A DNA stretch of 64,000 bases from positions 7,417 through 71,416 of the forward strand of contig JBBSUJ010000005.1 of NCBI GenBank assembly GCA_038235025.1, read 5' to 3'. This stretch comes from Burkholderiales bacterium. Its GTDB lineage: Bacteria > Pseudomonadota > Gammaproteobacteria > Burkholderiales > Burkholderiaceae_C. The notes beneath the pieces were generated by a model. The model did no database searches. It saw only the letters and a list, made by a program, of their open reading frames with translations, and was not told where the DNA came from. How positions within the stretch are numbered: the first letter of the stretch is position 1; the number at the start of each line of letters is the position of its first letter. Both the position numbers and the translations under genes were made by a program. This document shows positions 6,660 through 59,647 of this stretch, piece after piece.

Positions 6660-9320
6660 GTGCCTGTCGCTTCAGACAAAATTGCCCGTGAGTGGTTCAC
6701 CGCGCGCGGGTGGAAGCCGTTTCCGTTCCAGCGCGACGTGTGGCGCGCCATGCAGGAGGGGCGTTCCGGTCTGCTGCACGCCACCACCGGCTCTGGCAAA
6801 ACCTACGCGGCCTGGCTGGGAGCTTTACAGGCGTTTGCACTACGAAAATCGCCTCGAAAGTCATCGCCGGGCGCGAAAAAAGAGAGCCCCGTAAAGTCTG
6901 CGTCCGCGTCGCTCGCGGCAAGCAAACACCGCGCCGCCGCACCGCCGCTCACCGTGCTGTGGATTACCCCCATGCGCGCGCTGGCCGCCGATACGCTGCG
7001 CGCGCTTACCGCCCCGCTGACCGCACTGGCGCCTGACTGGACCACCGGGCTGCGCACGGGCGATACCGCATCGACGGAACGCGCCGCGCAAGACCGCCGC
7101 TTGCCAACAGTGCTGGTCACCACGCCGGAAAGTTTGTCGCTGCTGCTGGCCCGCGCGGATGCATACGAACGCTTGAAAAGCGTGCAACTGGTGGTGGTGG
7201 ACGAATGGCATGAGCTGCTGGGCAACAAGCGAGGCGTGCAGGTGCAATTGGGGCTGGCGCGGCTGTCCACCTGGAACCCGAAATTGATGGTGTGGGGCAT
7301 GTCGGCCACGCTGGGCAATCTGGAAGAGGCGTTGGCCACGCTGGTGCCGGTATCGCTCTCGCAGGGTTCTGCGCCCGACCACGTGCTGGTGCAAGGCCGC
7401 ATCGACAAAGCGCTGGAAGTCGACGTGTTGCTGCCTGCGCACATGGATCGTTTTGCCTGGGCCGGGCACATGGGTTTGTCGCTGGTGCCGCAGGTGGTGG
7501 CGCGGATTGAAGCGGCCGCCTCCACCCTGGTGTTTACCAATACCCGCTCGCAGTCCGAGCGCTGGTACCAGGCGCTGCTGGATGCACGGCCCGATTGGGC
7601 GGGCGCGATTGGCTTGCACCACGGATCGCTCGATGCAGGCGTGCGCGCTTGGGTGGAAGCGGGCCTGAAGGGCGGCAGCTTGCGCGCGGTGGTGTGCACC
7701 TCCAGCCTGGACTTGGGTGTCGACTTTTTGCCGGTCGACCAAGTGCTGCAAATCGGCTCGGCAAAGGGCGTAGCGCGTTTGCTGCAACGCGCGGGCCGCT
7801 CGGGCCATGCGCCGGGCCGGCGCTCCCGCGTCACGCTGGTGCCCACGCACAGCCTGGAACTGGTGGAGGCCGCTGGCGTGCGGCATGCCATCGCGCATGG
7901 GCAAATTGAATCGCGCCATTCGCCCCACGCGCCGCTGGATGTGCTGGTGCAGCACTTGGTCACCATCGGCCTGGGCGGCGGGTTTGAGCCCGACGCGCTG
8001 TTGGCTGAAGTGCGCCGCGCATACGCCTATCGGAACCTGAGCGATGCATCGTGGCAATGGGCGCTGGCCTTTGTGCGCCAAGGCGGTGAGAGCCTGACCA
8101 ATTACCCCGATTTTTCACGCGTGCAACCCGATGATGCCGGCATTTGGCGCGTGCCCGATGCTCGGCTTGCGCGCCGCCACCGCAGCAATATTGGCACCAT
8201 CGTGAGTGACGCATCACTCACGGTGCAATACCTGAAAGGCCCGAAGCTGGGCAGTGTGGAAGAGAGTTTTTTGTCGCGCTTGCAAACGGGCGATGTGTTC
8301 ACCTTTGCCGGGCGCTTGCTCAAGCTGGTGCGCATTGAGCAAATGACCGCTTGGGTGCGCCGCGCCACCAGCGGCGCGCCCGCCGTACCGCGCTGGGGCG
8401 GTGGGCGTTTGCCCATTTCGGAAACGCTCGGCCACGCCATGCTGGAAGAACTGGCCAAAGCTGGGCGCGGCGATTTTGACTCGCCCGAAATGAAATGCGT
8501 GCAGCCGCTGCTGGCTTTGCAGGCCGCGTGGTCGGCCCTGCCCTCGCCCGGCGCACTGGTGGCCGAGACGCTGCAAACGCGCGAAGGCTGGCACTTGTTT
8601 CTCTACCCGTTTGCAGGCCGACTAGTGCACCAAGGCTTGGCGGGCTTGCTGGCTTGGCGCGGCTCGCAGCACACGCCCAATACCTTCTCGATTGCGGTGA
8701 ACGATTACGGGCCGGAGCTGCTGTCAGCGCGCGAAATTGACTGGGCCGCGCTGCTCCCCGGCCTGCTGGCCAACAACGCGGAAACACCCGATACGCTGGC
8801 CGAGGAACTGCTGCAAACCCTGAACGCAACCGAGATGGCGCGCAGGCGTTTTAGGGAAATCGCGCGCATTGCCGGCCTCATTTTTCAAAGCCACCCCGGC
8901 GAGCAGCGCAGCAACCGGCAGATTCAGGCGTCTGCCTCGCTGTACTACGACGTGTTTGCCCGTTACGACCCGCACAACCTGCTGCTGGTGCAAGCCCGCA
9001 CTGAACTGCTCAGCGAGGAACTGGATGCCGAACGCCTTGCGCACACGCTGGCGCACATGCGCACGCAAACGCTGGCGCTGTGTCCGTTAACCCGACCCAC
9101 GCCTTTCGCGCTTCCACTGATGGTGGAGCGCTTTCGCGAGCGGCTTTCCACCGAGACGCTGGCCGATCGCCTGGCGCGCATGGTGGAAGCGTTGGAGAAA
9201 GCGGCGAATGCGACCATGGATGCGGCGGGCGACGGTGCCAAGCCGCGCCGACGCTCGCGCAAGTTGCCGGCGCCAACGACTACAACTACAACTACGACTA
9301 CGAGCGAAATAAAAGAGTGA
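6660..9320 (+). CDS. lhr: Ligase-associated DNA damage response DEXH-box helicase (Lhr-like)
   Basis: 886 aa. It has a Walker A motif (TGSGKTYAA), a DEWH box ([10 protein letters not shown]) and motif VI (QRAGRSGH). The C-terminus has a run of nine Thr residues. Confidence 0.9.
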
Positions 9321-10048
9321 GCGCCCCTCAGAACGAAACGGCCGATGTGCTTGAAAGTCGCCCTGCGTTACCCACCGGCGCGCACCAGCTACTCACCCAC
9401 GGTTTAAACCTGTGGCTGTTGCCCGGCCGCGCAGTGTGGTGGCCGCAGGCGGACATGTTGTTCGTCGCTGACTTGCACTTCGGCAAAGCCTCCACGTTTC
9501 GCCGCGCAGGCCTGCCGGTGCCGCAGGGCACCACGCAAGACAACCTGCAGCGCTTGGCGGTGTTAATAGAACAAACGCAGGCACGCCACCTCGTGTTTCT
9601 GGGCGACCTGTTGCATGCGCGCAGCGGTGCCGATGCGGCGCTATGGCGCGCACTGGCACATTGGCACGCGCTGCACGCCGACACCGCCATGACGCTGGTG
9701 CGTGGTAACCATGATCTGCACGCAGGCGACCCACCGGCTGCGCTGGGCATTGCGCTTGTCGACGAGCCATGGCGGCCGGTTCCGGGCGCAGCACTTGCTG
9801 GCTGCCACCATCCCCAATCGGTCGTGGGCACGCTGGCTTTAGCCGGCCACTTGCACCCGACGGCGCAGCTGTTTGGGTCCGGCCGAGACCGGTTGCGCGT
9901 GCCTTGTTTTGTGCTGCAGGGCGATCAATTGATTCTTCCGGCCTTTGGTGCGTTTACCGGCACTGCACCCACGCGCTGGCCGGCCGATACGCGATTGTTC
10001 GCGGTAGGCGGAGAGCAAGTCCACGCACTGCCCACAAGGCGCGGTTAG
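9317..10048 (+). CDS. pdeM: Ligase-associated DNA damage response endonuclease PdeM (metallophosphoesterase)
   Basis: GTG 9317 overlaps the lhr stop (GTGA). Metallophosphoesterase motifs are present: [22 protein letters not shown]. The part of the ORF before 9317 overlaps lhr and is not credible coding. Confidence 0.85.
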
Positions 10049-13373: not shown

Positions 13374-14515
13374 GCGAGCCCCTCGTTTCGCTGGGCCTGT
13401 TTGTGGCCGGTTTGATCGCGCTGATCGCCGGGGCGGATGTGCTGGTGCGCGGCGCGTCCAAGCTGGCACTGACGTTGGGGATTTCACCATTGGTCGTGGG
13501 CCTTACCGTGGTTGCTTTCGGCACCAGCGCACCCGAAATGGCGGTGGCGGCCAGCTCGGTGATCAGCGGTCAAACAGGCCTGGCGATGGGCAACGTGGTG
13601 GGCAGCAATATTTTCAATTTGCTGTTTATCTTGGGGATCAGCGCATTGGTAGCCCCGCTCATCGTTCACCAGCAAATCATTCGGCAGGAAATGCCGGTGC
13701 CGGTGGCGGGCTCTGCGCTGGTGCTGCTGCTCGCACAGGATGGCGCGCTCGGGCTGCTGGACGGCGCCGTGCTGCTGGCCTGCCTGCTGGCTTACACCAC
13801 CACGCTGGTGGTGCAATCGCGCCGGTTGACACGAACCTCGCGCGCATTGAGTGGGCACGGCGAAGTGGCGCCTACACAGGCAGGGCCTGAAGCGCCCAAA
13901 GGCTGGAGCGACCGTATTCCCGTGCAACTGGCGCTTATTGGAGGTGGCCTCGTTTTGCTGGTGCTGGTGCTGGGCTCGGACTGGCTGGTGACCGCATCGG
14001 TCGCGTTTGCCCGCTCTTTGGGCGTGAGCGAAGTGGTGATTGGCCTGACCATCGTGGCGGCAGGCACGTCTATGCCGGAAGTGGCCACCTCTGTGGCGGC
14101 AGCGCTCAAGGGCGAGCGCGATATCGCCGCAGGCAATGTCATTGGCAGCTGTACCTTCAACCTGCTGGGCTGCCTGGGCCTGTCCGGCGTGCTGGCTGGC
14201 AGCATGGGCAGTGGCGCGCCTCTCGCCAGTGTGGGTCTGCCAGTCGCGCAAAGCCTGTTGCAGTTTGATCTGTGGGTCATGCTGGCGGCCACCGTGATGT
14301 GCGTCCCACTGTTCGTGACCGGCCGCGAAATTTCCCGGTCAGAGGGCGCGCTGCTGCTAGGCGCCTTCGTGCTGTACATCCTTTACTTAGTGCTGGAGGC
14401 GCTCGCCGCGCCCGGCTTGCCAGCGCCGCTTACCTTGCTGTGGAGTGTGGTGCTGCCGGTGGTCGCGGTATCGGTGCTATCCGCGTTTCGTCGCCCCGCG
14501 AAGTTAAAGCCATAG
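13370..14515 (+). CDS. Calcium/sodium antiporter (CaCA/YrbG family)
   Basis: 381 aa. It has two alpha-repeat signatures (AFGTSAPEMAV and AAGTSMPEVATS) and an ATGA overlap with the upstream gene. Confidence 0.9.
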   Translation: MSEPLVSLGLFVAGLIALIAGADVLVRGASKLALTLGISPLVVGLTVVAFGTSAPEMAVAASSVISGQTGLAMGNVVGSNIFNLLFILGISALVAPLIVHQQIIRQEMPVPVAGSALVLLLAQDGALGLLDGAVLLACLLAYTTTLVVQSRRLTRTSRALSGHGEVAPTQAGPEAPKGWSDRIPVQLALIGGGLVLLVLVLGSDWLVTASVAFARSLGVSEVVIGLTIVAAGTSMPEVATSVAAALKGERDIAAGNVIGSCTFNLLGCLGLSGVLAGSMGSGAPLASVGLPVAQSLLQFDLWVMLAATVMCVPLFVTGREISRSEGALLLGAFVLYILYLVLEALAAPGLPAPLTLLWSVVLPVVAVSVLSAFRRPAKLKP

Positions 14516-14716
14516 TTTCACCAGAAAGGCTCTGGGGTCGCTCCTGCAGAATTCTGCAAAGCGTCTCCATCGCGGTAGTGACTGCGCCCGAGCAGGAGGC
14601 GGCTCACACGCTGCCGCGAATGCGCGTTTACAGATGGTTCAGCAGCGCTTTTGCTGCGGCGCGTGCGTCTGGCAGGCAGCTGGCAACCGTCTTTCGGCGC
14701 AGGCCACGGCCACCAC

Positions 14717-15160
14717 TCAGTACGATTTGTACGGCAGGTATTTGCCCGACATCGTGATGCTGACCCGGTCGCCCTGGGCATGGGGCTCACGCGCGAGGTT
14801 CATGCGAAAGTCGATGGCGCTCATGATGCCGTCGCCGAACTCCTCGTGAATCAGCTCTTTGAAGGTGCTGCCGTACACGCTGACCAGCTCGTAAAACCGA
14901 TAGACCAGCGGATCGGTAGGCACCGTTGTGGGGAGTGAGCCTTTGTAGGGCACCACCATCAGCCACAGACGCTCCTCATCGGACAACCCGAACAGCGCGC
15001 CGATGACCGATGCCTGCTCCGAAGTCATCGCCATCTGCCCCAGACAAGCAGCAGTGACCCACTCCTTGCTCAGACCCACCTTGGCGGCCACCTCGGACCA
15101 TTTGATGCCGCGAATGATGCGCGTGGCGATGATTTTTTCAGTAACGTCGAGTCGGGTCAT
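14717..15160 (-). CDS. cynS: Cyanase (cyanate hydratase)
   Basis: Internal ATG at 15160 with GGAG 6 nt upstream. The protein aligns along its length with E. coli CynS as I recall it (VTAACLGQ..., IPTDPLVYRFYE..., FGDGIMSAIDF..., ITMSGKYLPYKSY). Confidence 0.9.
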   Translation of the reverse strand: MTRLDVTEKIIATRIIRGIKWSEVAAKVGLSKEWVTAACLGQMAMTSEQASVIGALFGLSDEERLWLMVVPYKGSLPTTVPTDPLVYRFYELVSVYGSTFKELIHEEFGDGIMSAIDFRMNLAREPHAQGDRVSITMSGKYLPYKSY

Positions 15161-16376: not shown

Positions 16377-17339
16377 TCACTTGAGAATAATGACCTGCTC
16401 AGGCGGCGCTTCGCGCACCGGCTCGCCGCGCTGCTGCATGGGCATGGGCTGGCCCTGACGAACCCCGCGCGCCAAATGCGCGTCGGTGTAGCCCAGCTGA
16501 CCGGCCATTTGCTGGTACACGTCCTGCGCCAGACTGACGGACGTTTCCTTCAATACCTTGGAGCGGTTCGGCGGTGCAATATCACCGCGGTTTGACAAGA
16601 TTTTGGTGTCGTTGCCTTCCCCTTGGGCAGAGAAAGCGGCCTTGATCTCATACGTGCGCGTGTTGATGAGCGAGAAGTCGGCCAGCAGTTGCAGGCCGTA
16701 CTGGCGTGTGGCGCTGCTGGTGCCCTGCAGGGGCGACAGTGCATCGGTGAAGTCGATGCTGGAGACCACGCCAAACAGAACGTAGTCAGCGCCTTTGAAC
16801 TCGCCTTTTTTGATACGGGCGATGACATCGGTCACATCGTTCTGGCGAACAGGCTTGGCCATCTTGCCGCCCTGTACTTGGTTGAGCACCTGTTCGGCCT
16901 TGCTGTTTTGCGGCGCGCCGGCGTCGAAGCCCTTGCCCTGCACCAGCTGGAAGTAAGTGCCCTGCAGGATGGCGCCTTTGATGTCGTTGCTGTAGCCACC
17001 CAGCTCGCGCATTTCAATGTAGCTGTAGCGGCCGGCGACATAGGTGCCGCTGGCCTGCTCGGACGCTTGCACGGATTGCTGACCGCCATAAGAGCCCCCG
17101 CCGCCGTACGGGCCGTAGCTGTGGCTACCGCCTTGGCTCGCCTGCGCGCTCATTTGGGCGCTGCGCTGGTAGGTACCCGCCATGAAGTATTCGGAGACGC
17201 GCTGTGCGTACGCGAGATTGGTGACCGCTATTTTGGGGGGCGTGCCTTGGGCGTGGGCACTGGTCGCGCCAGCACCCCACAGCGCGGCGGTGGCTGCCAG
17301 CACGGAAAGCGCTGTGTTCAGAGTGGTTGTGCGTTGCAT
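16377..17339 (-). CDS. Periplasmic CsgG/LpoB-superfamily-like protein
   Basis: ATG 17339 gives the signal peptide MQRTTTLNTALSVLAATAALWGAGATSAHA. The segments KIAVTNLAY... and ADYVLFGVVSSIDF resemble the CsgG/LpoB fold. There is a Gly/Ser/Tyr-rich low-complexity insert. Confidence 0.55.
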   Translation of the reverse strand: MQRTTTLNTALSVLAATAALWGAGATSAHAQGTPPKIAVTNLAYAQRVSEYFMAGTYQRSAQMSAQASQGGSHSYGPYGGGGSYGGQQSVQASEQASGTYVAGRYSYIEMRELGGYSNDIKGAILQGTYFQLVQGKGFDAGAPQNSKAEQVLNQVQGGKMAKPVRQNDVTDVIARIKKGEFKGADYVLFGVVSSIDFTDALSPLQGTSSATRQYGLQLLADFSLINTRTYEIKAAFSAQGEGNDTKILSNRGDIAPPNRSKVLKETSVSLAQDVYQQMAGQLGYTDAHLARGVRQGQPMPMQQRGEPVREAPPEQVIILK

Positions 17340-18410: not shown

Positions 18411-19934
18411 TTAAGGAGCGGCGCTGGCGACCGGCTTGCTGCTCCTGCGGCGCTTTTGCGACTTGCGCGCAGGTGGTGGGGCAGTCGCCTCTGCGGCTTC
18501 CGGCGTACCCATTGCAGGCTGTGCAGACGGAGAAGCACTTGCCACGGAGGCAAGCAAGCCTACGGAGGCAACCTTGCCCATCAACACACTGTTGTTGTAC
18601 AGGCGCATCGGCACGATGGCGTACTGACCGTCGATCTGGACAGGCTCGGGCAAGGCACGGCCGTTAACGGTCAAGCGGTGCTTGCCCGGCGGCAAATAGC
18701 CGCGCGCCACATAGACCCGACCGGGCAACATACGCCACATGCGGTCATCCGCCTGCTCGGTGACCGTGGACGCGACTGCACCCAGAATGCCGCCGATCAG
18801 GCCGCCGTTTTTCTGGAGTTGGTCCTGGAGCACGCCTTTGGCGACGGCTCGGGTGACGCCGCGCAGCACCATGCCAGGCATTTGGTCCTTCAGAGCGCGA
18901 CGCGCCATGACGTTCACATCCACAATTTTTTCAAGCTTGAAGTTGTAGCCGTTGGCCGTAATCTGCCCCAGCGGCGCGTCGTTGGACGGCTGAATCACGG
19001 GGTAAGAGATGCTGGCAGTAATGAAACCACGGCCCGTGGGCACTGGCAAGGTGAACGCCTGCGGCTTACGCGCTGGAGCGTCGCCAGCTTCGATCAGGAA
19101 GAGCACGTCGGTCATGTGCTGCTTGCGCTTCCAGGTGAAACTGGTGCGACTATCGAGCCCACGCAGACCCTCTTCAAGCACACCGGTCTCGGGTTTGAGC
19201 TCAATCGCTTTGCGGTAGCCGGGCGCCGCCAAGCCTGGCTCGTTAAGCACTTCGTACAGGAAGCCTGCGAGGTAGTGCGAAAGGGCGTTGGAGTAACCGT
19301 TTTTGAGCGCCAGCACTTCCGGATCATTCAGCGTGTCGACCGGGTAGCCATTGATTTCTTTGCCGCTCGACTGCGCGCCCTTGGCCTTGGCTTCTTCTTC
19401 GGCCGCCAAAGTTTCTTTGGAACGGAATTCCGCAATCACCGCCTCGCGCTCGTGGGTTCGCTTGATATCAACCCGAGCGTTGTCGAGGTCGCCAATCGCC
19501 ACTCGGTTCAACGCAAGCGTGGTGGTAAGCCACACTTTTTCGTAGTCCTGGCCTTCATAGACGTTCAGGCGTTCGCTGATCAATGCCGCGCCCACTGTTC
19601 CAAACAGTTTCTGGGGATTGGTTTTGGCGGTTTCTTCCCAGGCTTTGACGCGGATATCGGCCAGCAACAAAGCGTTGGTGCTGTCGTCATAACGCTGCTC
19701 CATGCGCAGCAGTGCGCCACGCTCCATGTTGTACAGCACCGCTGTGCGCTCGTCTTCTGTGGTGGCCGAGGCCTCCAGCCGCGCCAACGCAGCGGGAACG
19801 CCGCCGCTTGCGCTGGCCGTCTGCATTTCAGTCGCCAGCTTGTCGTGGCTTTGCATGGTGGCGCAACCGGCCAGGGAAAAAGCCAGTGCGGCGGCCGCAA
19901 TGGCGCGCACACGTAATGGGTGAAAAACTGCCAT
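18411..19934 (-). CDS. Large lipoprotein of unknown function, first gene of the ycfL-lpoB cluster
   Basis: The ORF extends to 19988. The ATG at 19934 gives MAVFHPLRVRAIAAAALAFSLAGC (lipobox). It is about 507 aa with a basic, Ala/Pro-rich C-terminal tail. The family assignment (COG3014-like) is from memory only. Confidence 0.6.
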   Translation of the reverse strand: MAVFHPLRVRAIAAAALAFSLAGCATMQSHDKLATEMQTASASGGVPAALARLEASATTEDERTAVLYNMERGALLRMEQRYDDSTNALLLADIRVKAWEETAKTNPQKLFGTVGAALISERLNVYEGQDYEKVWLTTTLALNRVAIGDLDNARVDIKRTHEREAVIAEFRSKETLAAEEEAKAKGAQSSGKEINGYPVDTLNDPEVLALKNGYSNALSHYLAGFLYEVLNEPGLAAPGYRKAIELKPETGVLEEGLRGLDSRTSFTWKRKQHMTDVLFLIEAGDAPARKPQAFTLPVPTGRGFITASISYPVIQPSNDAPLGQITANGYNFKLEKIVDVNVMARRALKDQMPGMVLRGVTRAVAKGVLQDQLQKNGGLIGGILGAVASTVTEQADDRMWRMLPGRVYVARGYLPPGKHRLTVNGRALPEPVQIDGQYAIVPMRLYNNSVLMGKVASVGLLASVASASPSAQPAMGTPEAAEATAPPPARKSQKRRRSSKPVASAAP

Positions 19935-22426: not shown

Positions 22427-22469
22427 CATAGCTATCAGCCCAATACCATCAAGCGCTAGAGGCCGATTT
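22427..22469 (+). repeat. REP-like element, copy 3, overlapping the parA stop
   Basis: Sequence tcatagctatcagcccaataccatcaagcgctagaggccgattt. The parA stop codon (22449-22451) and its last ~6 codons lie inside the element. Confidence 0.7.
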
Positions 22470-23369: not shown

Positions 23370-24095
23370 TTACGTGACCGCACCGACCTCGCCACGCGAA
23401 TGTTCAGCGGCCATGCACCGCATCCACACAATGCAACGCTCGGCATCCAGGCACGGCACGGCCAACTGTTCCACGTGAAACACTTCCACTGCCTTTGGCA
23501 AGGCGCTGATCTCATCCTGCGGGTGCTTACCTTTCATCGCGAGCCACGCCCCGCCCGGCCCGAGCGCCGCGCCAGACCATGCGGTGAAGTCCGCCAACGA
23601 GGCAAAGGCACGGCTGCTGACGACGCCGTACGCATCTGCCAGCGATTCCACCCGGGCGTGGACACCGCGCAGGTTTTTAAGGCCGATACTGACCGCCACT
23701 TGCTGAACAAAAGCCGCCTTTTTGCTTACCGTGTCAACGCAGTCAACCATGAGCTCCGGAACGCAAATGGCAAACACAACACCGGGTAAGCCACCGCCAG
23801 AGCCGACATCGAGCAGGCGCATCGCCCCAGCGGCAGACTCGTTCGCTTGCGTCAAATGGCGCCGCAAGGGAGCAACCGCTGCCAAGCTATCTAAAAGGTG
23901 CAAGCTGAGCATGGCCTGGGGATCACGCACAGAGGTCAGGTTGTAGACCTTGTTCCATTTTTGAAGCAACCCGAGGAATGACGCCAACTGGTCCAACTGC
24001 ACTTCCGTAAGTTCTAGCGCCAATGCGCGAACGCCCTGCTCCAGCTGCAGCCTCAGCGCAGCCTCGCTCAACGACACCTTAGCTGGCACTTCCAT
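23370..24095 (-). CDS. rsmG: 16S rRNA (guanine527-N7)-methyltransferase RsmG
   Basis: 241 aa with LLQKWNKVYNLTSVRD and SAM motif LLDVGSGGGLPG. It overlaps the mnmG stop by 1 nt. Confidence 0.9.
   Translation of the reverse strand: MEVPAKVSLSEAALRLQLEQGVRALALELTEVQLDQLASFLGLLQKWNKVYNLTSVRDPQAMLSLHLLDSLAAVAPLRRHLTQANESAAGAMRLLDVGSGGGLPGVVFAICVPELMVDCVDTVSKKAAFVQQVAVSIGLKNLRGVHARVESLADAYGVVSSRAFASLADFTAWSGAALGPGGAWLAMKGKHPQDEISALPKAVEVFHVEQLAVPCLDAERCIVWMRCMAAEHSRGEVGAVT
23467..23482. promoter_or_regulatory. parS site (ParB binding), inside rsmG
   Basis: TGTTCCACGTGAAACA matches the parS consensus TGTTNCACGTGAAACA. Confidence 0.8.
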
Positions 24096-26071
24096 CAGGC
24101 CACCACACCTTCGGGTGAGCGGGAAAACTCTTTCAATCCATTCTTTTTGAGATGGACCAGCAAGAGCGACATGCTGGCAGGCGTGATACCCGGAATACGT
24201 GATGCCTGCCCCAAGGTCTCTGGCCGCTGGCGCTCCAGGGTCTGCCGCGCCTCGATGCTCAGCGCGGTCACTTTCAAGTAGTCAATATCGGCGGGCAGCT
24301 TCAACTGCTCGAAGTGCGCCGCCCTTTGCACGTCACTCTTCTGGCGCTCAATGTAGCCAGAGTAACTGGCAGCAATCTCTATCTGCTCGACCACGGACTC
24401 ACAAAGCTCGCCCAATGTTTCACGTGAAACATCTGCGCTGACATGACGTCCACCATCCATTTCCATCAGCGGCTGGTACTTCACGTCTGGCCGGCGCAGC
24501 AACTCAAACAGGTTGTACTCGTGCTCAATGGCTTTACCCAGAACGCGCTCAGACTCGCGAGCGGGCAAATTTTTGGGATTTACCCAGGTGTTTTTGAGGC
24601 GCGCCGTCTCGCGCTCCACCGCCTCGCGTTTGCGGCTGAAGGACGCCCAGCGCGCGTCGTCCACCAATCCCATGGTGCGACCTGCTTCTGTCAGGCGCAT
24701 ATCGGCGTTGTCTTCGCGCAGTTGCAGGCGGTATTCGGCCCGGCTGGTAAACATGCGGTAGGGCTCGGTCACGCCCTGTGTGACCAAGTCGTCCACCAGC
24801 ACGCCCAGGTAGGCTTCGTCGCGCCCTGGCAACCAAGGCGACTCACCCCGACACGCCAACGCGGCGTTGATGCCGGCGAACAGGCCTTGTGCAGCAGCTT
24901 CTTCATAGCCGGTGGTGCCGTTGATCTGCCCGGCGAAATACAGCCCGGTGATTTGCCGTGTTTCAAAGCTGTTTTTCAACGAGCGCGGGTCAAAGTAGTC
25001 GTATTCAATCGCGTAACCGGGACGCAGAATGTGTGCGTTCTCCAGCCCATCCATGCTGCGCACTAGGTCCAGCTGAATGTCGAACGGCAAGCTGGTGCTG
25101 ATGCCGTTGGGATAGAACTCGTGCGTGGTCAAACCCTCAGGCTCCAGAAAAATTTGGTGGCTGTCCTTATCCGCAAAGCGATTGACCTTGTCTTCCACGC
25201 TGGGGCAATAGCGCGGCCCCACGCCTTCAATTTTCCCGGTGAACATGGGACTGCGATCAAAACCGCTGCGAATGATGTCGTGTGTGCGCAGGTTGGTGTG
25301 CGTAATCCAGCACGGCATTTGTGCCGGGTGCATGGCCGCACCCCCATGCGCATGCGCCATGAAGCTGAAAACCGGAACCTTGCCCTCGTTCACGCCGCCC
25401 GGCATGCCGTCGCCGGGTTGCTCTTGGCACTTCGAGAAATCAATGCTGCGGCCGTCGATGCGCGGGGGTGTTCCGGTTTTGAGCCGGCCTTGTGGCAGCT
25501 GCAATTCTTTGAGCCGCGCCGACAGACTCGCCGCCGGCGGGTCACCCGCCCTGCCGGCCGCATAGTTGCTCAGCCCCACATGGATTTTCCCGTCCAGAAA
25601 AGTGCCTGCCGTCAGCACCACGGTGCGACTGCGAAACTGCACACCCACCTGGGTAACGGCGCCGACCACCCGGTCGCCCTCCACCATCAAGTCATCGACC
25701 GCTTGCTGGAAAAGCCACAAGTTGGGCTGATTCTCCAATGCGTGCCGAATGGCCGCCTTGTACAGAACGCGGTCAGCTTGCGCGCGCGTAGCGCGTACAG
25801 CAGGCCCTTTGCTGGAGTTCAGAATGCGAAACTGAATGCCAGACACATCAGTCGCCAATGCCATCGCGCCGCCCAGCGCGTCCACTTCTTTCACCAAGTG
25901 GCCCTTGCCGATGCCGCCGATAGACGGGTTGCAGCTCATCTGCCCCAGGGTTTCGATGTTGTGGGTCAGCAGCAAAGTGCGGCTTCCCATGCGGGCGGCG
26001 GCCAGCGCGGCCTCGGTGCCGGCATGGCCGCCACCGACGACGATGACATCAAATTCTTTGGGATACAACAT
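24095..26071 (-). CDS. mnmG: tRNA uridine-5-carboxymethylaminomethyl synthesis enzyme MnmG (GidA)
   Basis: ATG 26071 gives [22 protein letters not shown] (FAD dinucleotide fold). It resembles E. coli MnmG along its full length, as I recall that sequence. Confidence 0.93.
24416..24431. promoter_or_regulatory. parS site, inside mnmG
   Basis: TGTTTCACGTGAAACA is the perfect 16-bp palindromic parS. Confidence 0.85.
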
Positions 26072-26145
26072 GGGACACACTCCGAAACGACCAACGTCAA
26101 GGATTGACGGTATGCCTCGATTTTCCCACCAATGGCGCGCAAGGG

Positions 26146-26161
26146 TGTTTCACGTGGAACA
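26146..26161. promoter_or_regulatory. parS site, intergenic (mnmG / yeiH)
   Basis: TGTTTCACGTGGAACA is the exact reverse complement of the site at 23467. It is embedded in a longer inverted repeat, aagggtgt...acaccctt. Confidence 0.8.
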
Positions 26162-26185
26162 CACCCTTGGCTGAAGCGAATGCGC

Positions 26186-27232
26186 TCAAAGGAGAGTCAA
26201 CAAACGCGGCACGCCTTGGTTGATCACCGCACCTCCGACGACCAACCAGATGAACAGCACACCCGCCAACGCCAAGGGCCGCAAACCCGCCTTGCTCAAG
26301 GCGCTTACTTGGGTGGTAAGCCCCAGCGCTGCCATCGCCATCGCCAGCGCAAAGTTGTCGACCTGTACAGCGGCGCTTACCAAGCCCGCCGGGAGCCACT
26401 GCAGTGAATTGAAGAGCACCATACCGATAAACGCAAAGGCAAACCATGGAATAGAGATGCCGCGGCTACTTACCCATGACGAGTCGTCATGCGTGGAGCT
26501 TTCGCGGCTTGTATGCCCCGCTACCCAAAAAGACAGCAGCAACAGTACCGGCGCCAGCAGCATCACCCGCACCATTTTGGTCACCACCGCTGTATCGGCG
26601 GCTGCCTCGCTCACCGAGCGGCCCGCCACCAGCACCTGCGCCACTTCATGAATGGTCGAGCCGATATAGATGCCGAAGGCCTTGTCGCCTGACGGCAACC
26701 AGCCAGCGACGCTGCCCCAACTAAGCATCAACGGGTACAGAAACATGGCCAGCGTGCCAAACACCACTACCGTGGCCGCCGCCACCGTCACCTCTTCGGC
26801 ACGGGCGCGCAACACTGGCGCTGCGGCCATCACCGCAGCGGCGCCGCAAATCGAACTACCAGCCGCAATCAACATGGCGGCGCGGCGGTCCATGCCCAGC
26901 CACCGCACCCCCAACCAGCAAGCCAGCGCAAAGGTGGTAGCAACCACCAGCAAATTCGTGACCACACCCGCCGCGCCCACAGCGCCAATGTCGGCCACCG
27001 TGAGGCGTAGCCCGTACAGCACGATGCCAAGGCGCAATAACTGCTGCTTGGAAACGCCTACCCCCGTGGCGCAGCGCCCTTCCAGCGCCGGATACACGGT
27101 GTTGCCCACGACCACGCCCAGCACAATGGCCAGCGTGAGCGCGTTCATGCCGTGCGCCGCCATCCAACTGTGCGTGCTCAACATCAATGCGCTGGCCGCC
27201 AAGGCCGAGCTGAGCAACAAGCCCGGAAGCAT
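26186..27232 (-). CDS. yeiH: YeiH-family (UPF0324) membrane protein, putative sulfate exporter family
   Basis: The ORF extends to 27343. The ATG at 27232 (MLPGLLLSSALAAS) gives about 348 aa, the usual YeiH length. It is highly hydrophobic and divergent from a LysR gene, as yeiH is from yeiE. Confidence 0.75.
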   Translation of the reverse strand: MLPGLLLSSALAASALMLSTHSWMAAHGMNALTLAIVLGVVVGNTVYPALEGRCATGVGVSKQQLLRLGIVLYGLRLTVADIGAVGAAGVVTNLLVVATTFALACWLGVRWLGMDRRAAMLIAAGSSICGAAAVMAAAPVLRARAEEVTVAAATVVVFGTLAMFLYPLMLSWGSVAGWLPSGDKAFGIYIGSTIHEVAQVLVAGRSVSEAAADTAVVTKMVRVMLLAPVLLLLSFWVAGHTSRESSTHDDSSWVSSRGISIPWFAFAFIGMVLFNSLQWLPAGLVSAAVQVDNFALAMAMAALGLTTQVSALSKAGLRPLALAGVLFIWLVVGGAVINQGVPRLLTLL

Positions 27233-37072: not shown

Positions 37073-37115
37073 AATAGCTACCCACGCTTACTCCATAAGC
37101 GCTAGAGCCCGATTT
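37073..37115 (+). repeat. REP-like element, copy 5
   Basis: Sequence aatagctacccacgcttactccataagcgctagagcccgattt, lying between divergent gene starts. Confidence 0.8.
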
Positions 37116-48881: not shown

Positions 48882-51311
48882 TTAGCGACCCGGCCCGCGC
48901 CAGCGCCGCAGCAGCAGCGCATTCGCCATCACGCTCACCGAGCTCAGCGCCATCGCCGCACCCGCCACTACCGGGCTCAGGTAGCCCAGCGCCGCCAATG
49001 GAATGCCGACCACGTTGTAGGCAAAGGCCCAGAACAGATTCTGGCGAATTTTCATGACGGTGCGGTGCGCGATGTCGAGCGCTGCTGCCACCAGCGCCGG
49101 GTCGCCGCGCATCAGCGTGATGCCGGCCGCGTGCATGGCCACATCGGTGCCATTGCCCATGGCCATGCCGACGTCGGCAGCGGTCAGGGCGGGCGCGTCG
49201 TTCACGCCGTCGCCCACCATGACCACGATTTGAGGAACACCGCCCTTCGCCTTTTGCAGCGCTCGAACGGCAGCGGCTTTGTCGCCGGGCAATACCTCGG
49301 CCATGACTTCTCCAGCGTCCGGCTCAAGCCCAAGGCGGCGCGCCATGGCTTCGGCCGCGCCCCGGTTGTCGCCCGAGATCATCACGGTGCGCAGGCCTTT
49401 GGCGCGCAGCGCCACAATGGCTCCGCGCGCGCCGGGTTTGGGTTCATCGGCGAAAGCCAACAAGGCACGTACAACCGGCACTGCACGCGCCAAAGCGGCG
49501 CTTCTTCCTTCGCCCTCTCCCTTATCTACAACCTTGTCCGCGCCCTTACCTACATCCTCATTCACACCCTTTTTCACCTCATGGCCTACGCGTTCGGCCA
49601 ACACCGACACCGTGGCCCCGTCAGCCTGTAGCGCCGCAGCGCGGGCCGCCAGAGCGCCCAAGTCCACGTTCAGCGTGTTCATCCAGCGCAAGCTGCCCAG
49701 CAGGTAATACCGGTCATCCACGTCCCCCTCGGTGCCACTGCCGGGAACAGCGCGCATAGCCGTGGGCGGTGCAAGCGCGGGTGGCGACGGGTCACCGGCA
49801 AGGCCACTGTCAGTAGATGCATCGGCAGCAACATCGCCCTTGATGTGTTCCGCCTGAAATGCCTGTATGACGGCGCGCGCCAGCGGGTGTTCGCTGCCGC
49901 TTTGCAAGCGGGCGGCGGTGTGCAACAACGCGCCGCGGTTGGCTCCATCGGGTACCTCAAACGCAGTCAGCCGCGGCTGGCCTACAGTGAGCGTGCCGGT
50001 TTTGTCAAAAGCTACCGTGTCGACCCGGTGCGCGCGCTCCAGCGCCTCGGCGTCCTTGATCAAAATGCCGTGCGTGGCGGCCACGCCGGTGCCGGCCATG
50101 ATGGCAGCAGGCGTCGCCAAGCCCAGCGCGCAGGGGCAGGCAATCACCAATACCGCCATCGCATGGATCAAGGCGACCTCTATGCCTACTCCCGCCCACA
50201 GCCACCCACCCAGCGTGGCCAATGCGATCACCAGCACCACCGGCACAAAAACATTGGCCACGCGGTCCACCAGCCGCTGAATCGGCGCTTTGGCGGCCTG
50301 CGCGTCTTCCACCAGCCGAATGATGTTCGCCAGCACCGTCTCTCGGCCCACGGCGCGCACTGCAAGCACCACGCGGCCATCGCCGTTGATCGACCCGCCC
50401 GTAAGCGCATCCCCCACGGCCTTGGGCACCGGCAGCGGCTCGCCGGTGAGCATGGACTCATCTACCTCGGTATCGCCCTGCGCCACCACGCCGTCCACCG
50501 GCAAGCGCTCGCCGGGCCGCACCACCAATTGGTCGCCCACCATCACTTCGGCCACCGGCACGTCGTGCTCTTGGCCGCGCAGCAACACGTGAGCCACATT
50601 GGGTCTTAGGCCATGCAGCGCCCGAATGGCGGTGGTGGTTTGGTGCTTGGCCCGTGCCTCCAGCCATTTGCCCAACAGCACCAACGTGACCACCATGGCC
50701 GACGCTTCAAAGTACAGGTGCGCCATAGTGCCGGGCGCAGCAGTGAGCCACAGCCACACCGACAATCCCCACGCTGCGCTGGTGCCGATGGCGACCAGCA
50801 AATCCATATTGCCGCTGAACGCCCGCAGCGCATGCCAACCGGCCTTGTAGAAGCGCGCACCCAAAATGAACTGCACCGGCGTCGCCAGCGCGAACTGCAC
50901 CCACGCCGGCAACATGCCGTGCGGCCCGAACACCTGGCCCAGCGGCCCAGGCAGCAGGCTGACCAACATGGGCAGCATCAATGGGACCGACAGCAACAAA
51001 CCCAGCGCTACCGGCAAAAAGCCGCTCCACTGCGAGGAGTGGTCATGCGCCTCCATCGCCGCTTCAGTGCGCGGCTCGTAGCCCGCATCGCGCACGGCTC
51101 GCCGCAGAAGGGCTTGCATGTCGGCGCTGCCACCACCAAGCCCTTCTGCGGCGTCTTCAAAGGCCTCGCCGCCAGCCCAGGTTACCCGGGCCGTCTCGGT
51201 CGCTAAATTCACGCTGGCGCTCTGCACGCCTGGCACCTTGGCCAGTGCGCGCTCCACACGTCCCACGCAGCTGGCGCACGTCATGCCGCCGATGCCTATG
51301 TCGAGCTCCAT
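48882..51311 (-). CDS. copA: Copper-translocating P-type ATPase CopA
   Basis: It has an HMA domain ([12 protein letters not shown]), a CPC motif ([12 protein letters not shown]), DKTGT, and [11 protein letters not shown] chose the ATG at 51311 (MELDIGIGG...) because the ORF's upstream part overlaps the predicted CueR-type promoter. Confidence 0.9.
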
Positions 51312-51419
51312 AAAACCTGGTGTGCCCTTTGCATCGATATTGGGTGTACCGGCTGCGCCAGTGCCGCGGATCGACAGAGCGGATGAAGTTTTGGGAGGAG
51401 CGTATTGGACCATGCCACC

Positions 51420-51450
51420 ACCGTACACCCTGCCACGATGGCAAGGTCAA
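51420..51450 (-). promoter_or_regulatory. CueR (MerR-type) operator/promoter of copA
   Basis: The minus strand reads TTGACC-(19 nt)-TACGGT. The dyad ACCTTGCCAtcgTGGCAGGGT lies inside the 19-bp spacer, as in the E. coli PcopA architecture. Confidence 0.7.
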
Positions 51451-51552
51451 GCGCGAGGGGGTGGGCAGCGCAAGTTGCGGCAAATGAAACCGTCGCCGCC
51501 TACAGCCTTATTCACAAACACCCCACCGCATCAAAAACGGTGTTTTGTTTGA

Positions 51553-51793
51553 CTATTCTTCTATTTCTTTCTATATCAATAGTAGTAGTAGTAAGGGAGG
51601 CCTTTTTCTGGGGATAAGTCGGTTTTACCCAACGATGACAAACACTTGCACGGCAGACAAGTCTGTGCGCGGTAGGCGCTTGCTGCTGCACGCCAAACAG
51701 GGACAACTTCCGTAGCATCTATATTTCTGTGGATAACTTGCTTATTATTAGAAAACCATCCACAGGTTTGTCCACAAAAAAAAGCACCGAGCT
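51553..51793 (+). repeat. AT-rich DnaA-box-bearing module A, homologous and inverted relative to 59134-59372
   Basis: It contains direct repeats (tcttcta/tctttcta), (TAG)4, and the boxes TGGGGATAA (51609-51617), TGTGGATAA (51728-51736, a perfect TTATCCACA) and TTGTCCACA (51768-51776). It aligns by hand to the reverse complement of module B. Confidence 0.8.
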
Positions 51794-51888
51794 CGCTGCT
51801 GCCGTGGCGATGGGCGAACTGCACGCCGGCTGTTCGATCAACCTACTGCCAACGTACTCAGTCGCAGTACCCGGTAGAAAATATAAGT

Positions 51889-51933
51889 AAAATCGGCTTA
51901 TAGAGCTTATGCAGCAAGCGTTGGAAGCTATAA
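51889..51933 (-). repeat. REP-like element, copy 6 (minus orientation)
   Basis: The reverse complement reads atagcttccaacgcttgctgcataagctctataagccgattt. Confidence 0.65.
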
Positions 51934-51958
51934 AAACAGTAGTGTCCGGACATGGCGC

Positions 51959-51989
51959 TTGCCCCTGTCACGGCGTCAAGGTGCAAGCT
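51959..51989 (+). promoter_or_regulatory. Second CueR-type operator/promoter, upstream of copZ-cueR
   Basis: TTGCCC-(19 nt)-CAAGCT, with the dyad CCCCTGTCAcggCGTCAAGGT related to the copA operator arms. Confidence 0.6.
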
Positions 51990-52045: not shown

Positions 52046-52249
52046 ATGAGCACCGCCCAACAATTCACCGTTACCGGTATGACCTGCGGCCACTGCGAGC
52101 GCGCTGTCACCCAGGCCGTGCAAACGCTGGACCCAGCCGCCCAAGTGCGCATCGACCGCGCCGCCAACCACGTTGAGATCGACAGCAGCCAACCGCGCGA
52201 AGCACTGGCCGCCGCCATCACCGAAGAGGGCTACCAGGTCGCCGCATGA
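52046..52249 (+). CDS. copZ: Copper chaperone CopZ-like (HMA domain)
   Basis: Internal ATG at 52046 gives 67 aa with MSTAQQFTVTGMTCGHCERAV. Its stop overlaps the cueR start (ATGA). Confidence 0.85.
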   Translation: MSTAQQFTVTGMTCGHCERAVTQAVQTLDPAAQVRIDRAANHVEIDSSQPREALAAAITEEGYQVAA

Positions 52250-52734
52250 GCACGGCCACTTCCGCTGTCGCCACGTCCACTCCAGGCGCTGACACGGCGA
52301 CCACGGCGCGCGTCCCCATCGGCACAGCCGCCCAGCGCGCGGGCGTGTCGGCGCGCATGGTGCGGCACTACGAATCGCTGGGCCTGCTCGCGCCTTTGGA
52401 GCGCACCGAATCGGGCTACCGGCAATATTCGCAAGCGGATGTGCACGCCCTGCGCTTTATCCGCCGCTCGCGGGACTTGGGCTTTTCGATGGTCGAGATC
52501 GCCACCCTGCTCAGCCTGTGGCAAGACAAACAGCGCGCCAGCGCCAGCGTGAAGCAAATCGCGCAGACGCATATCGACGACTTGGCGCAGCGCATTGCCG
52601 TTATGCAGGCCATGCAGCGCAGCTTGCAAGATTTGGTCAACTGCTGCGCGGGCAATGCGCGGCCGGATTGTCCGATATTGGACGACTTGGCAGCCGAAGG
52701 CACAAGCGCAGCGCCCGTTACCGCAAAGCGGTAA
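52246..52734 (+). CDS. cueR: Cu(I)-responsive MerR-family regulator CueR
   Basis: 162 aa with a MerR HTH (IGTAAQRAGVSARMVRHYESLGLL) and a C-terminal Cx7C metal site (CAGNARPDCP). Confidence 0.88.
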   Translation: MSTATSAVATSTPGADTATTARVPIGTAAQRAGVSARMVRHYESLGLLAPLERTESGYRQYSQADVHALRFIRRSRDLGFSMVEIATLLSLWQDKQRASASVKQIAQTHIDDLAQRIAVMQAMQRSLQDLVNCCAGNARPDCPILDDLAAEGTSAAPVTAKR

Positions 52735-52747
52735 AAATTATCAAAAA

Positions 52748-52793
52748 AATAGCTGCTCATGCTTACATATCAAGCGCTAGCTAGAGTTAAGCC
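52748..52793 (+). repeat. REP-like element, copy 7
   Basis: Sequence aatagctgctcatgcttacatatcaagcgctagctagagttaagcc, lying between cueR and mscS. Confidence 0.7.
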
Positions 52794-54264: not shown

Positions 54265-54395
54265 TTCGCTTCCCCTGGGGAGTAGCCGGCTTTCACCTGT
54301 GAAAGCGCCTGCGTCAACATTCTCGGCGTGCCCCGCGCGCCGTGGCGCAGGCAACCGGAGCGGTGCGAAGAGACCTTATTCTTTGCAGCGCTTGG
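54265..54395 (+). promoter_or_regulatory. yybP-ykoY (Mn2+) riboswitch upstream of mntP
   Basis: A TATAAT box at 54258-54263 is followed by the conserved elements GGGGAGTAGCC (54277-54287), a hairpin CTTTCACctGTGAAAG, GTCAACAT, a stem GCCTGCG...CGCAGGC, and AAGAGACC (54369-54376). It sits upstream of a known riboswitch-controlled gene family. Confidence 0.8.
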
Positions 54396-54486
54396 ATTGG
54401 CGAGACCATGGGCGCGTCCGCCGGGCATGTGCCGGGCTATGCGGACGCGCCTCATGCACCTCGCCCGGCCGTGGATTCCGCTTCTG

Positions 54487-55059
54487 ATGAACCCCCTCAC
54501 GATGGCCCTGCTGGCACTGGCCATGTCTACCGACGCGTTTGCTGCCGCCGTGGGCAAAGGCATGTCGCTCAGGCACCCGCACTGGCGCGAAGCGCTGCGC
54601 ACTGGCGCTATTTTTGGTGTGATCGAAGGCTTCACCCCGGTGTTGGGCTGGGCGCTGGGCGTGGTGGCGGCTGACTATGTCAAAGCTTGGGACCACTGGA
54701 TTGCGTTTTTACTGCTCTGCGGCCTGGGGCTGCACATGGCCATTGCAAGCCTGCGCTCGCCCGCCTCGAACCCAAATGACAAGCCAAACCGGCATGGGTT
54801 TTGGCTCCTCGCAGCCACAGGCTTTGCCACCAGCGTGGACGCCATGGTGGTGGGCGTAGGGCTGGCATTTATTGACGCGCCGATTGTCCCAGTCGCGCTC
54901 GCAATCGGCTTTACAACGTTTGTCGCGGTCACGCTGGGCGTGATGCTGGGACGCGTGTTGGGCACGGCGGCCGGGCGGCGGGCAGAACTGGTGGGTGGTC
55001 TGGTGCTGATCGGAATCGGTGCGGTGATTCTTTTCGAGCACCTCTCAGGTGCCGCCTGA
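54487..55059 (+). CDS. mntP: Manganese efflux pump MntP
   Basis: Internal ATG at 54487 gives 190 aa. MNPLTMALLALAMSTDAFAAAVGKG and the second-half repeat ATSVDAMVVGVG are MntP/DUF204 hallmarks. Confidence 0.88.
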   Translation: MNPLTMALLALAMSTDAFAAAVGKGMSLRHPHWREALRTGAIFGVIEGFTPVLGWALGVVAADYVKAWDHWIAFLLLCGLGLHMAIASLRSPASNPNDKPNRHGFWLLAATGFATSVDAMVVGVGLAFIDAPIVPVALAIGFTTFVAVTLGVMLGRVLGTAAGRRAELVGGLVLIGIGAVILFEHLSGAA

Positions 55060-58776: not shown

Positions 58777-59133
58777 TTGACTGGCCAATCGTTGACACGC
58801 CTGCAAAGGCCGTTCCAGCAACAATCAAAGAGGCGCTTAAGCGCATACCGGGCGCGGGTCTCGAGTTAACCCTCTGGCGCGTCTTCAGTGGGTTTGCACA
58901 CCCATCACAAGAATGTGCTGGCCACTCGCTGGTGATACGAACGGCAAGCGCGTCTTTTGTGTGCATCACATCTCACTGTGGAAAAGTTTTCGGAACGCAG
59001 CGGCAACACCAGCGTCCGCGGCGGGTAAAGCACTTGACCAACCCGACTGCGCCTCAACCCCCGGGCACAACCTTGCGCAGTTAACACCATGTACCGCATC
59101 TGTGAGTCCTTGTTACGTCCGCCGGGACCGCGT

Positions 59134-59372
59134 AGCTCGGCTGTGCATAACCCTGTGTAAAAAATCACTGGAAAATACAAGTTACCCACAGAAAAAAGCG
59201 ATGTAAGGAAGTTATTCAAGTTTTGGGACAGCCATGACAGTGGCTGGTACACATACTTTGAAGCCTTGCAAGTGCCTGATTTTTCTCATGAAATCAGGGT
59301 TACCCACAGAACCACGGCTTGTCTACTACTACCACTATGTAATTAGAAAGACTTAGAAAGATAGCAAAGCCG
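59134..59372 (-). repeat. AT-rich DnaA-box-bearing module B, inverted homologue of 51553-51793
   Basis: Boxes TGTGCATAA (59142-59150, i.e. TTATGCACA) and TTACCCACA (59182-59190 and 59300-59308). It also has (CTA)n, ctactactaccactat, and direct repeats ttagaaag x2. The boxes are positionally equivalent to those of module A. Confidence 0.8.
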
Positions 59373-59647
59373 GCCCGCGCTTTGGTGATGGAAGAGCCGT
59401 TGTGAGCGCAAGAAATGCCCTCAGGACATCAAAAGGGCTTTTTATTGAGATAGAAATGTTGGAGCACTGCCAAGGTGTCTCTATTTGTTAGCTGTCTTCA
59501 CGACGCGCAAGGTCTTTACCAGCGCTTCAAGCAGCAATCGTCAACGGGCTAAGTCGCCGGGTGCCTCAACCAAGTTGTGCAGAGAACCACCGATATCGCA
59601 GCGATTCTTCGGAAGCCAAGGAAGCCGTTGTTTGCCGGCTCCGCCGT

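Follow-up and report, generated by a model that had tools for sequence, protein, structure and literature searches.

Two copies of a predicted DnaA-trio origin module near copA and copZ-cueR in a Burkholderiales chromosome

In a 64,000-nt stretch of the genome of a Burkholderiales bacterium (assembly GCA_038235025.1, contig JBBSUJ010000005.1, positions 7,417 to 71,416; hereafter the window), the gene copA (48882-51413, minus strand) and the genes copZ-cueR (52046-52734, plus strand) are divergently oriented and separated by a gap of 630 bp. Inside this gap, at about 51541-51780, lies the element analyzed here, which is designated as module A. The segment 51541-51800 contains 43% G+C, against ~63% G+C in the window. 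The first-pass annotation, made from the letters alone, placed the element correctly in the copA/copZ-cueR divergent region. It listed direct repeats, a (TAG)4 run, several DnaA boxes, and the promoter-like pair TTGACT-17-TATATC, all of which are present at the coordinates detailed below, and it read their layout as that of a replication origin or of a datA- or DARS-type locus. The meaning of (TAG)4 as DnaA-trios was missed, as was a second, inverted copy of the element at 59114-59385 (module B). Module A is probably a complete copy of the DnaA-dependent replication origin (oriC) of this group of Comamonadaceae, with module B as the second copy. By its sequence, module A can be classed with the origins of the oriC type, as can the other copy on this chromosome, and the firing of either copy is predicted only.

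At one end of module A is the A+T-rich candidate for the DNA unwinding element (DUE; 51541-51579, plus strand). It includes two 9-nt direct repeats, TTCTATTTC and TTCTATATC (51559-51577), and the sigma-70-like TTGACT-17-TATATC (51549-51577, plus strand). The segment TTCTTCTATTTCTTTCTATAT of this candidate is identical in the relative L081, where its flanks are diverged. The DnaA-trio array follows on the plus strand as seven consecutive NAN triplets (51574-51594), with the core TAG TAG TAG TAG TAA at 51580-51594 (four TAG at 51580-51591, then TAA); in an alignment of 17 copies, the G/TAGTAGTAG of the array is invariant or almost so. A spacer (51595-51608, plus strand) with the G+C-rich start GGGAGGCCTTTTTC leads to the DUE-proximal R1-type DnaA box on the minus strand (51609-51617; TGGGGATAA on the plus strand and TTATCCCCA on the minus strand), which has one mismatch; the family consensus at this box is TGTGGACAA. 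The spacer is 14 bp long in module A, in module B, and across the family alignment. The remaining part (51618-51776, plus strand) is the putative DnaA-assembly region, with the conserved blocks CACTTGC, AAG.CTGTG, and GGGACAACTT and three more boxes: the perfect box TGTGGATAA (51728-51736), followed by two opposed boxes, CCATCCACA with two mismatches (51756-51764) and TTGTCCACA with one (51768-51776).

The edge of module A is marked by an A8 run and a hairpin (AGCAGCGAGCTCGGTGC-T8 on the minus strand; 51776-51800), a palindrome found in the repeat listing. The hairpin with its T8 run is terminator-like, yet there is no gene for it to terminate. In the family copies L072b and L018, an A-run and a hairpin likewise stand directly past the last box, and in related loci the gene past the module is a minus-strand LTXXQ gene. 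The hairpin may therefore have been copied together with the module. Coding capacity was also considered. None of the small open reading frames (ORFs) in the module (56, 82, 53, and 26 aa) has a properly placed ribosome-binding site, and AAGGGAGG at 51592-51600, considered as such a site, has no start codon after it.

The clustering of DnaA boxes in module A is beyond chance. Three boxes with at most one mismatch were observed in 51541-51800 while 0.053 were expected, and three or more were reached in none of 20,000 first-order Markov simulations drawn from the region's own composition (P < 5e-5). A chance origin of the cluster, which the first-pass annotation had named as a way in which its reading could fail, is thus excluded. 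The boxes of module B are enriched likewise (P < 5e-5 by Markov simulation). The whole window contains 14 boxes with at most one mismatch against 4.7 expected, and 8 of them fall in two clusters of ~300 bp, the module A region and 58977-59308.

The layout of module A agrees with that of a DnaA-trio unwinding system. In the basal unwinding system, a DnaA box is separated by 0-16 bp from a run of three or more NAN trios (consensus 3'-GAT-5', equal to 5'-TAG), which is followed by the unwinding site (PMC8287927; PMC6669920), and the conserved order in oriC is DUE, trios, and a proximal box 5'-TGTGNAWAA (Weigel preprint, 10.1101/2025.08.05.668638). In module A, the DUE candidate, the trios, and a 5'-TGTGNAWAA-type box follow one another in this order and orientation. 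The single mismatch of TGGGGATAA is within the limit of two, and its distance of 14 bp from the last trio is within the limit of 16 bp. Four TAG and one TAA are found within the seven NAN triplets, and module B has three TAG. The 40 bp ahead of the trio run are 72% A+T in a window of ~63% G+C, and further DnaA boxes are present beyond chance expectation. The third criterion of Weigel, by which transcription of the gene upstream of the DUE should lead away from the DUE, applies to module A, where copA points away from it. It does not apply to module B and the other copies adjacent to a GGDEF/EAL gene (hereafter the EAL gene), where that gene runs toward the DUE.

By analogy with the basal unwinding system of the Bacillus subtilis type and with the layout of Escherichia coli oriC, the following course can be drawn for module A. 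DnaA would bind the DUE-proximal box (51609-51617) and four or five more boxes over ~170 bp, the last two of which are opposed. A DnaA-ATP oligomer would then grow from the proximal box, cross the 14-bp spacer, and reach the TAG trios on one of the strands. This strand would be stretched, the adjoining A+T-rich 40 bp would open, and the helicase would be loaded there. On this basis we infer DnaA binding, unwinding, and in vivo firing of module A, module B, or both.

Module B (59114-59385, minus strand) was recognized through pairwise alignment with module A and with nhmmer (E = 1e-47). Its DUE is at ~59332-59371, its three TAG trios, preceded by TAG TGG, are at 59323-59331, and the R1-type proximal box TGTGGGTAA occupies 59300-59308; three more boxes follow at 59182-59190, 59154-59162, and 59142-59150. 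Counted from the trios, the boxes stand at +14, +133, +161, and +173 in module A and at +14, +132, +160, and +172 in module B, that is, in the same register within 1 bp. In the profile search against the family model, module A scores 191 bits and module B 160 bits. The two modules are 7.6 kb apart and are arranged back to back, with the DUEs outward and the box arrays inward. Module B is directly downstream of the EAL gene, and the 7.3 kb bracketed by the two modules contains copZ, cueR, mscS, eamA, mntP, an aldehyde dehydrogenase gene, rdgC, and an LTXXQ gene. A copy identical to module B was found in the Logan contig L083. There is no third module within the 64-kb window, and no module beyond the known ones was found in the ~1 Mb of copA loci searched.

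The relative L081 also carries two inverted copies (9005-9262 and 16745-17005). Module A and its counterpart in L081 are conserved from the A+T-rich end to the last box, while the sequence on either side is diverged. L081 has an additional 330-nt ORF ahead of copZ. Both L081 copies are of the A type and are 77% identical to each other, whereas modules A and B of the window are far more diverged. This difference suggests gene conversion or a recent re-duplication between the copies.

Module A is a member of a family of elements conserved in Comamonadaceae, and 142 copies of this family were collected and aligned. A profile built from the first copies detected the module in many Comamonadaceae loci, and metagenomes were scanned with the pattern GTAGTAGTAG-N14-TGTGGRYAA, which gave 120 loci, 82 of them with family modules. 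In the first half of the alignment, the conserved columns are the A+T-rich stretch, ATAG-TAG-TAG-TAG-TAG, the 14-bp spacer, (C)TGTGGACAAG followed by TTTT, and CTTGC; in the second half, they are AAG..TGTGG, GGGACAA, CTGTGGATAAC, GGTTGTGCC, C.CAG, and TTATCCACA(G). Conservation is highest at the trios, the proximal box, CTGTGGATAA, GGTTGTGCC, and TTATCCACA. Where the context of the metagenome loci could be recognized, it was either the EAL-LTXXQ-rdgC-copA neighborhood (61 loci) or the spacer between dnaA and dnaN (7 loci). The modules in the dnaA-dnaN spacer are oriented dnaA - boxes - trios - DUE - dnaN (L162 and L121; by strand also L135 and L147). Outside dnaA-dnaN, the majority of copies lie between the EAL gene and rdgC, frequently as tandem pairs. 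In L121, two tandem modules (9112-9314 and 9480-9673) occupy the dnaA-dnaN spacer, and duplication is therefore seen at the classical site too. In three loci without a family module (L118, L126, and L156), the bare GTAGTAGTAG-N14-TGTGGRYAA adjoins dnaA/dnaN; these loci come from distant relatives, whose DnaA is 35-41% identical. The pattern is consistent with a general origin signature.

Two or three full copies of the predicted origin are common in this bacterial family. The classical replicon model has a single replicator, whereas the window, L081, and the Acidovorax delafieldii locus (L084) each have two copies, as do 43 of the 82 module-bearing metagenome loci. Three copies were found in Paenacidovorax monticola (CP060790.1; L085), where a tandem pair (14509-14720 and 14864-15104) is joined by another copy 4.7 kb on (19543-19771). 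Adjacent copies are in tandem in 48 of 50 pairs, at a median distance of 486 bp from start to start, and only the window and its relative have them inverted. In the tandem pairs, the EAL-proximal copy ("a") is closer to the "a" copies of other genomes than to its own partner ("b"), a sign that the duplication is old and that both copies have persisted. The "a" copies are without the terminal TTATCCACA box, and the "b" copies keep it. Modules A and B of the window belong to neither type.

The direction of replication was analyzed with the top-strand GC skew at third codon positions (GC3 skew) of each called gene, with 7-12 genes on each side compared by the Mann-Whitney test. Longer syntenic loci of relatives were gathered through the EAL protein for this purpose. 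In A. delafieldii, the mean is -0.04 on the left (7/10 genes negative) and +0.13 on the right (8/8 positive; p = 0.0003). In the relative of the window (L086), it is -0.09 on the left (9/10 negative) and +0.06 on the right (6/7 positive; p = 0.009), and in a Giesbergeria metagenome-assembled genome (L090), -0.09 on the left (10/12 negative) and +0.11 on the right (7/8 positive; p = 0.003). The GC3 skew thus turns from negative to positive at the modules in three related lineages. The first-pass annotation had held that a skew turn far from the element would speak against an origin; in these relatives, the sign change falls on the modules. With copA set on the plus strand, the plus-strand genes of the window beyond module A have positive coding-strand skew (up to +0.34) and the minus-strand genes mostly negative skew; therefore, the switch is not an artefact of gene orientation. 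In the window itself, the genes past copA show a strong strand asymmetry of the kind expected to the right of an origin. The raw GC skew declines along nearly all of the window, the plus strand being rich in C, and levels off from ~53 kb; taken alone it says little, as no more than 4.6 kb remain past module B. The EAL gene, located between module B and the window end, has a GC3 skew of about -0.02.

The dnaA regions served as controls. The complete genome of P. monticola has three modules ~54 kb downstream of dnaA, a distance measured between two loci of one record (record coordinates give no such distance in Acidovorax sp. 100, whose record does not start at dnaA). The dnaA region of P. monticola (L211) contains two promoter boxes only and G+C-rich spacers, with neither a module nor a sign change, the skew being negative on both sides. 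In Giesbergeria, rpmH-dnaA-dnaN-gyrB is 8 kb from the syntenic EAL gene. The locus L089, with the order rpmH-dnaA-dnaN-gyrB...EAL-LTXXQ-rdgC-copZ-copA and without a module, shows no sign change across 24 kb. The order EAL-LTXXQ-rdgC-copA is kept in L036, L045, and L089 (Giesbergeria anulus / sinuosa), and the module is absent there and up to 22 kb downstream of dnaA. In L211 and L089, the coding-strand GC3 skew of dnaA-dnaN-gyrB is negative, and these genes run toward the predicted origin; replication would meet their transcription head-on, an unusual situation for core replication genes.

The presence of two complete copies within 7.6 kb, where a single firing origin is the norm (10.1101/2025.08.05.668638), raises the question of whether only one copy fires. 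In the window, this could be module B at the ancestral EAL-rdgC site, which would leave module A as an element that binds DnaA without firing. It might serve as a sink in the manner of datA, reactivate DnaA in the manner of DARS, or hold additional DnaA and loop to the active origin, as distal DnaA boxes act by looping in B. subtilis (PMC6669920). The loss of the terminal TTATCCACA box from the tandem "a" copies suggests functional divergence between copies, and the copA-copZ site of module A is lineage-specific: of all loci examined, just the window and L081 have it. However, the DUE, the trios, and the spacer of exactly 14 bp have all been retained in module A, and these parts are needed for unwinding and not for titration. 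They are also the best conserved part of the module in the comparison with L081, and module A outscores module B against the family model. Moreover, datA and DARS have been defined in E. coli alone, and the modules are not homologous to them. A non-firing module A is considered unlikely. The first-pass annotation had left open the choice between an origin and a datA/DARS-type locus. The origin side is better supported, by the layout of the unwinding system, the homologs in the dnaA-dnaN spacer, and the skew switch at the modules of relatives; one of the two copies could still act as a datA/DARS-type locus.

The same annotation offered a small transcript as an alternative, and the module could in principle be a DnaA-regulated promoter or a small-RNA gene transcribed from ~51584 through TTGACT-17-TATATC. 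The hexamer pair at 51549-51577 resembles a sigma-70 promoter, the A+T-rich end has a TATA(T/A)A-like element conserved in the family, and origins often overlap promoters, one example being oriCII of Pseudomonas aeruginosa with gidA (PMC13438810). Yet the promoter scan gave no plus-strand call at 51549-51577, and the -35 hexamer is not conserved, reading TTGGTT in L081 and TTTGCT in module B. RNAalifold on 17 copies gave -1.39 kcal/mol, with pairs only between the two opposed DnaA boxes and no compensatory change. Rfam has no match at the gathering threshold, the sole sub-threshold hit being a miRNA model with E = 0.27. The scan found no plus-strand terminator, and the downstream gene varies between copies and is often convergent. 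With neither a conserved RNA structure nor an Rfam match, the small-transcript proposal did not hold up and is very improbable. Even less probable, to the point of being negligible, is a mobile or foreign element, such as a miniature inverted-repeat transposable element (MITE), a transposon end, or a remnant of an integrated plasmid oriV, that carries DnaA boxes by coincidence. The low G+C content, the two inverted copies 7.6 kb apart, and the variable position within the neighborhood among genomes would fit such an element. Against it, every recognizable context is origin-proximal (the 61 metagenome loci) or dnaA-dnaN (the 7 loci), and further copies are absent from the window and from the ~1 Mb of copA loci. 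Genomes that lack the inverted pair have the gene order that is found here between A and B, and no transposase gene was seen in the surveyed loci. Transposon or Tn7-like ends were rejected on these grounds, and a plasmid origin was rejected because blastn against 72,556 plasmids gave no match.

Several points weigh against module A being a firing origin. The support is computational, and DnaA binding and firing are predicted from it. As two copies are present, the firing copy need not be A. Both proximal boxes of the window deviate from the consensus TGTGGACAA, A with TGGGGATAA and B with TGTGGGTAA. The skew between A and B is mixed and the window extends only 4.6 kb past B; hence, the sign change cannot be placed in the window itself, and the tests in relatives rest on 7-12 genes per side. 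In P. monticola, a block of seven genes to the left of the modules has positive skew. The genes on the EAL/dnaA side mostly face the modules, so that replication would run into their transcription head-on, an unusual arrangement beside an origin.

A broader scenario is offered as a tentative one. In a large Comamonadaceae clade (Acidovorax, Paenacidovorax, Giesbergeria-like, and relatives), the origin may have moved tens of kb downstream of dnaA, so that dnaA-dnaN-gyrB would be replicated head-on. Two and sometimes three complete oriC copies, conserved separately and each equipped with an unwinding element, could be stably kept, and several of them could be working origins. In the lineage of the window, the pair is inverted around eight genes with one copy between two copper-responsive CueR promoters, where transcription under metal stress could modulate opening. 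The oriC with DnaA-trios is a known kind of element, and the dual origins of P. aeruginosa are known as well. What appears new is the family-wide duplication of a full origin, its displacement from dnaA, and the inverted pair with a copy between two CueR promoters. No described oriC of Comamonadaceae or Acidovorax was found in the literature searched; DoriC predictions were outside this search, and part of these origins may be catalogued there.

One replicator per bacterial chromosome is the expectation, and full origin modules appear to be duplicated across an entire family in the present case. Such genomes would be a natural system for the choice of DnaA between adjacent origins, the firing of both, the avoidance of over-initiation, and the relocation of the origin relative to dnaA. 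Predictors that assume oriC beside dnaA would misplace it in these genomes, and the module model could locate it directly.

The surroundings of module A are consistent with its placement near an origin. Three parS sites (23467-23482, 24416-24431, and 26146-26161; 0-1 mismatch to TGTTTCACGTGAAACA, none expected by chance) lie within and directly upstream of the mnmG-rsmG-parA region. Module A is 25-30 kb from these sites and mnmG-rsmG-parAB, and the origin-proximal setting described by the first-pass annotation is therefore correct. Closer by, a MerR/CueR-type operator palindrome (51426-51454, minus strand) abuts the DUE side of module A. We infer that it belongs to the copA promoter, by analogy with the known promoter layout of the MerR family with a 19-bp spacer. 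A second operator of this type is assigned to the copZ-cueR promoter (51955-51983, plus strand), 180 bp past module A. The two operators, which are context and not part of the module, are inverted/direct repeats of each other, and the former is conserved in L081. Module A is flanked by both, within the 500 bp that separate them, and is upstream of copA and copZ alike. In most related copA loci, cueR is just 300-900 bp from copA. The operators of the window are 500 bp apart because the origin module is between them, and this module accounts for an otherwise puzzling A+T-rich insert of 500 bp between two CueR operators.

Two further features were noted in the window. A manganese (yybP-ykoY) riboswitch (54272-54446, plus strand; 59.5 bits) is directly upstream of the gene for an MntP-family efflux protein (~54487-55059). 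A short intergenic repeat, AATAGCT...GCTTA...TAAGCGCTAGA, occurs at 2552-2585, 22427-22460, 37073-37106, and 52748-52781, and in a weaker form at 51892-51925; a similar sequence is found ahead of copZ in L081. This repeat may be an element similar to repetitive extragenic palindromes (REP-like).

The E. coli oriC is a compact origin of 245 bp with the DUE followed by R1 ... R4. Compared with this general layout, module A is similar in length (~240 bp) and has its DUE at one end beside a box in the R1 orientation (with CTGTGGATAAC-type flanks). The terminal box is opposite and ~160-170 bp off, the box groups face each other, and the module is apart from dnaA. It differs in having neither GATC/SeqA sites nor 13-mer repeats, in its explicit DnaA-trios, and in being multi-copy. 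Module A is also similar to incC of B. subtilis, where the box, a spacer with a G+C start, TAG/NAN trios, and an A+T-rich stretch stand in the same order and orientation with further boxes upstream; the unwinding system defined there has been predicted for most phyla (PMC6669920; PMC8287927). Members of the family in the dnaA-dnaN spacer have the same orientation as incC. Unlike oriC of the B. subtilis type, the module of the window is not beside dnaA, and those of relatives are ~54-58 kb downstream of it. There are two or three full copies, and one clear proximal box is recognized instead of a tandem pair.

The datA and DARS loci of E. coli and the DnaA-box clusters of B. subtilis (PMC3245932) are origin-proximal groups of boxes outside the firing origin, a role that one of the two modules could have. 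These loci have neither a DUE nor trios and are not copies of oriC, whereas in module A the box cluster is present together with a full DUE and trio module. A precedent for the copy number is P. aeruginosa, cited as the only experimentally shown two-origin exception, its two origins differing from each other (as cited in 10.1101/2025.08.05.668638). Its oriC1/oriC2 arrangement is also predicted in Pseudomonadaceae/Halomonadaceae (10.1101/2025.08.05.668638; PMC13438810). There, as here, two regions with DnaA boxes and a DUE are a few kb apart on one chromosome (~5 kb in that case; 7.6 kb or 0.35-0.8 kb for the present modules) and conserved in the family. Sites of the P. aeruginosa type were not seen in these genomes: upstream of mnmG in the window (26081-26186) there is one parS site without a box cluster, and the two promoter boxes of the rpmH-dnaA spacer of P. 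monticola are accompanied by neither a DUE nor trios. In P. aeruginosa, the two origins are unlike sequences located at rpmH-dnaA and upstream of gidA, whereas the modules described here are paralogs in tandem or inverted arrangement, with one to three copies.

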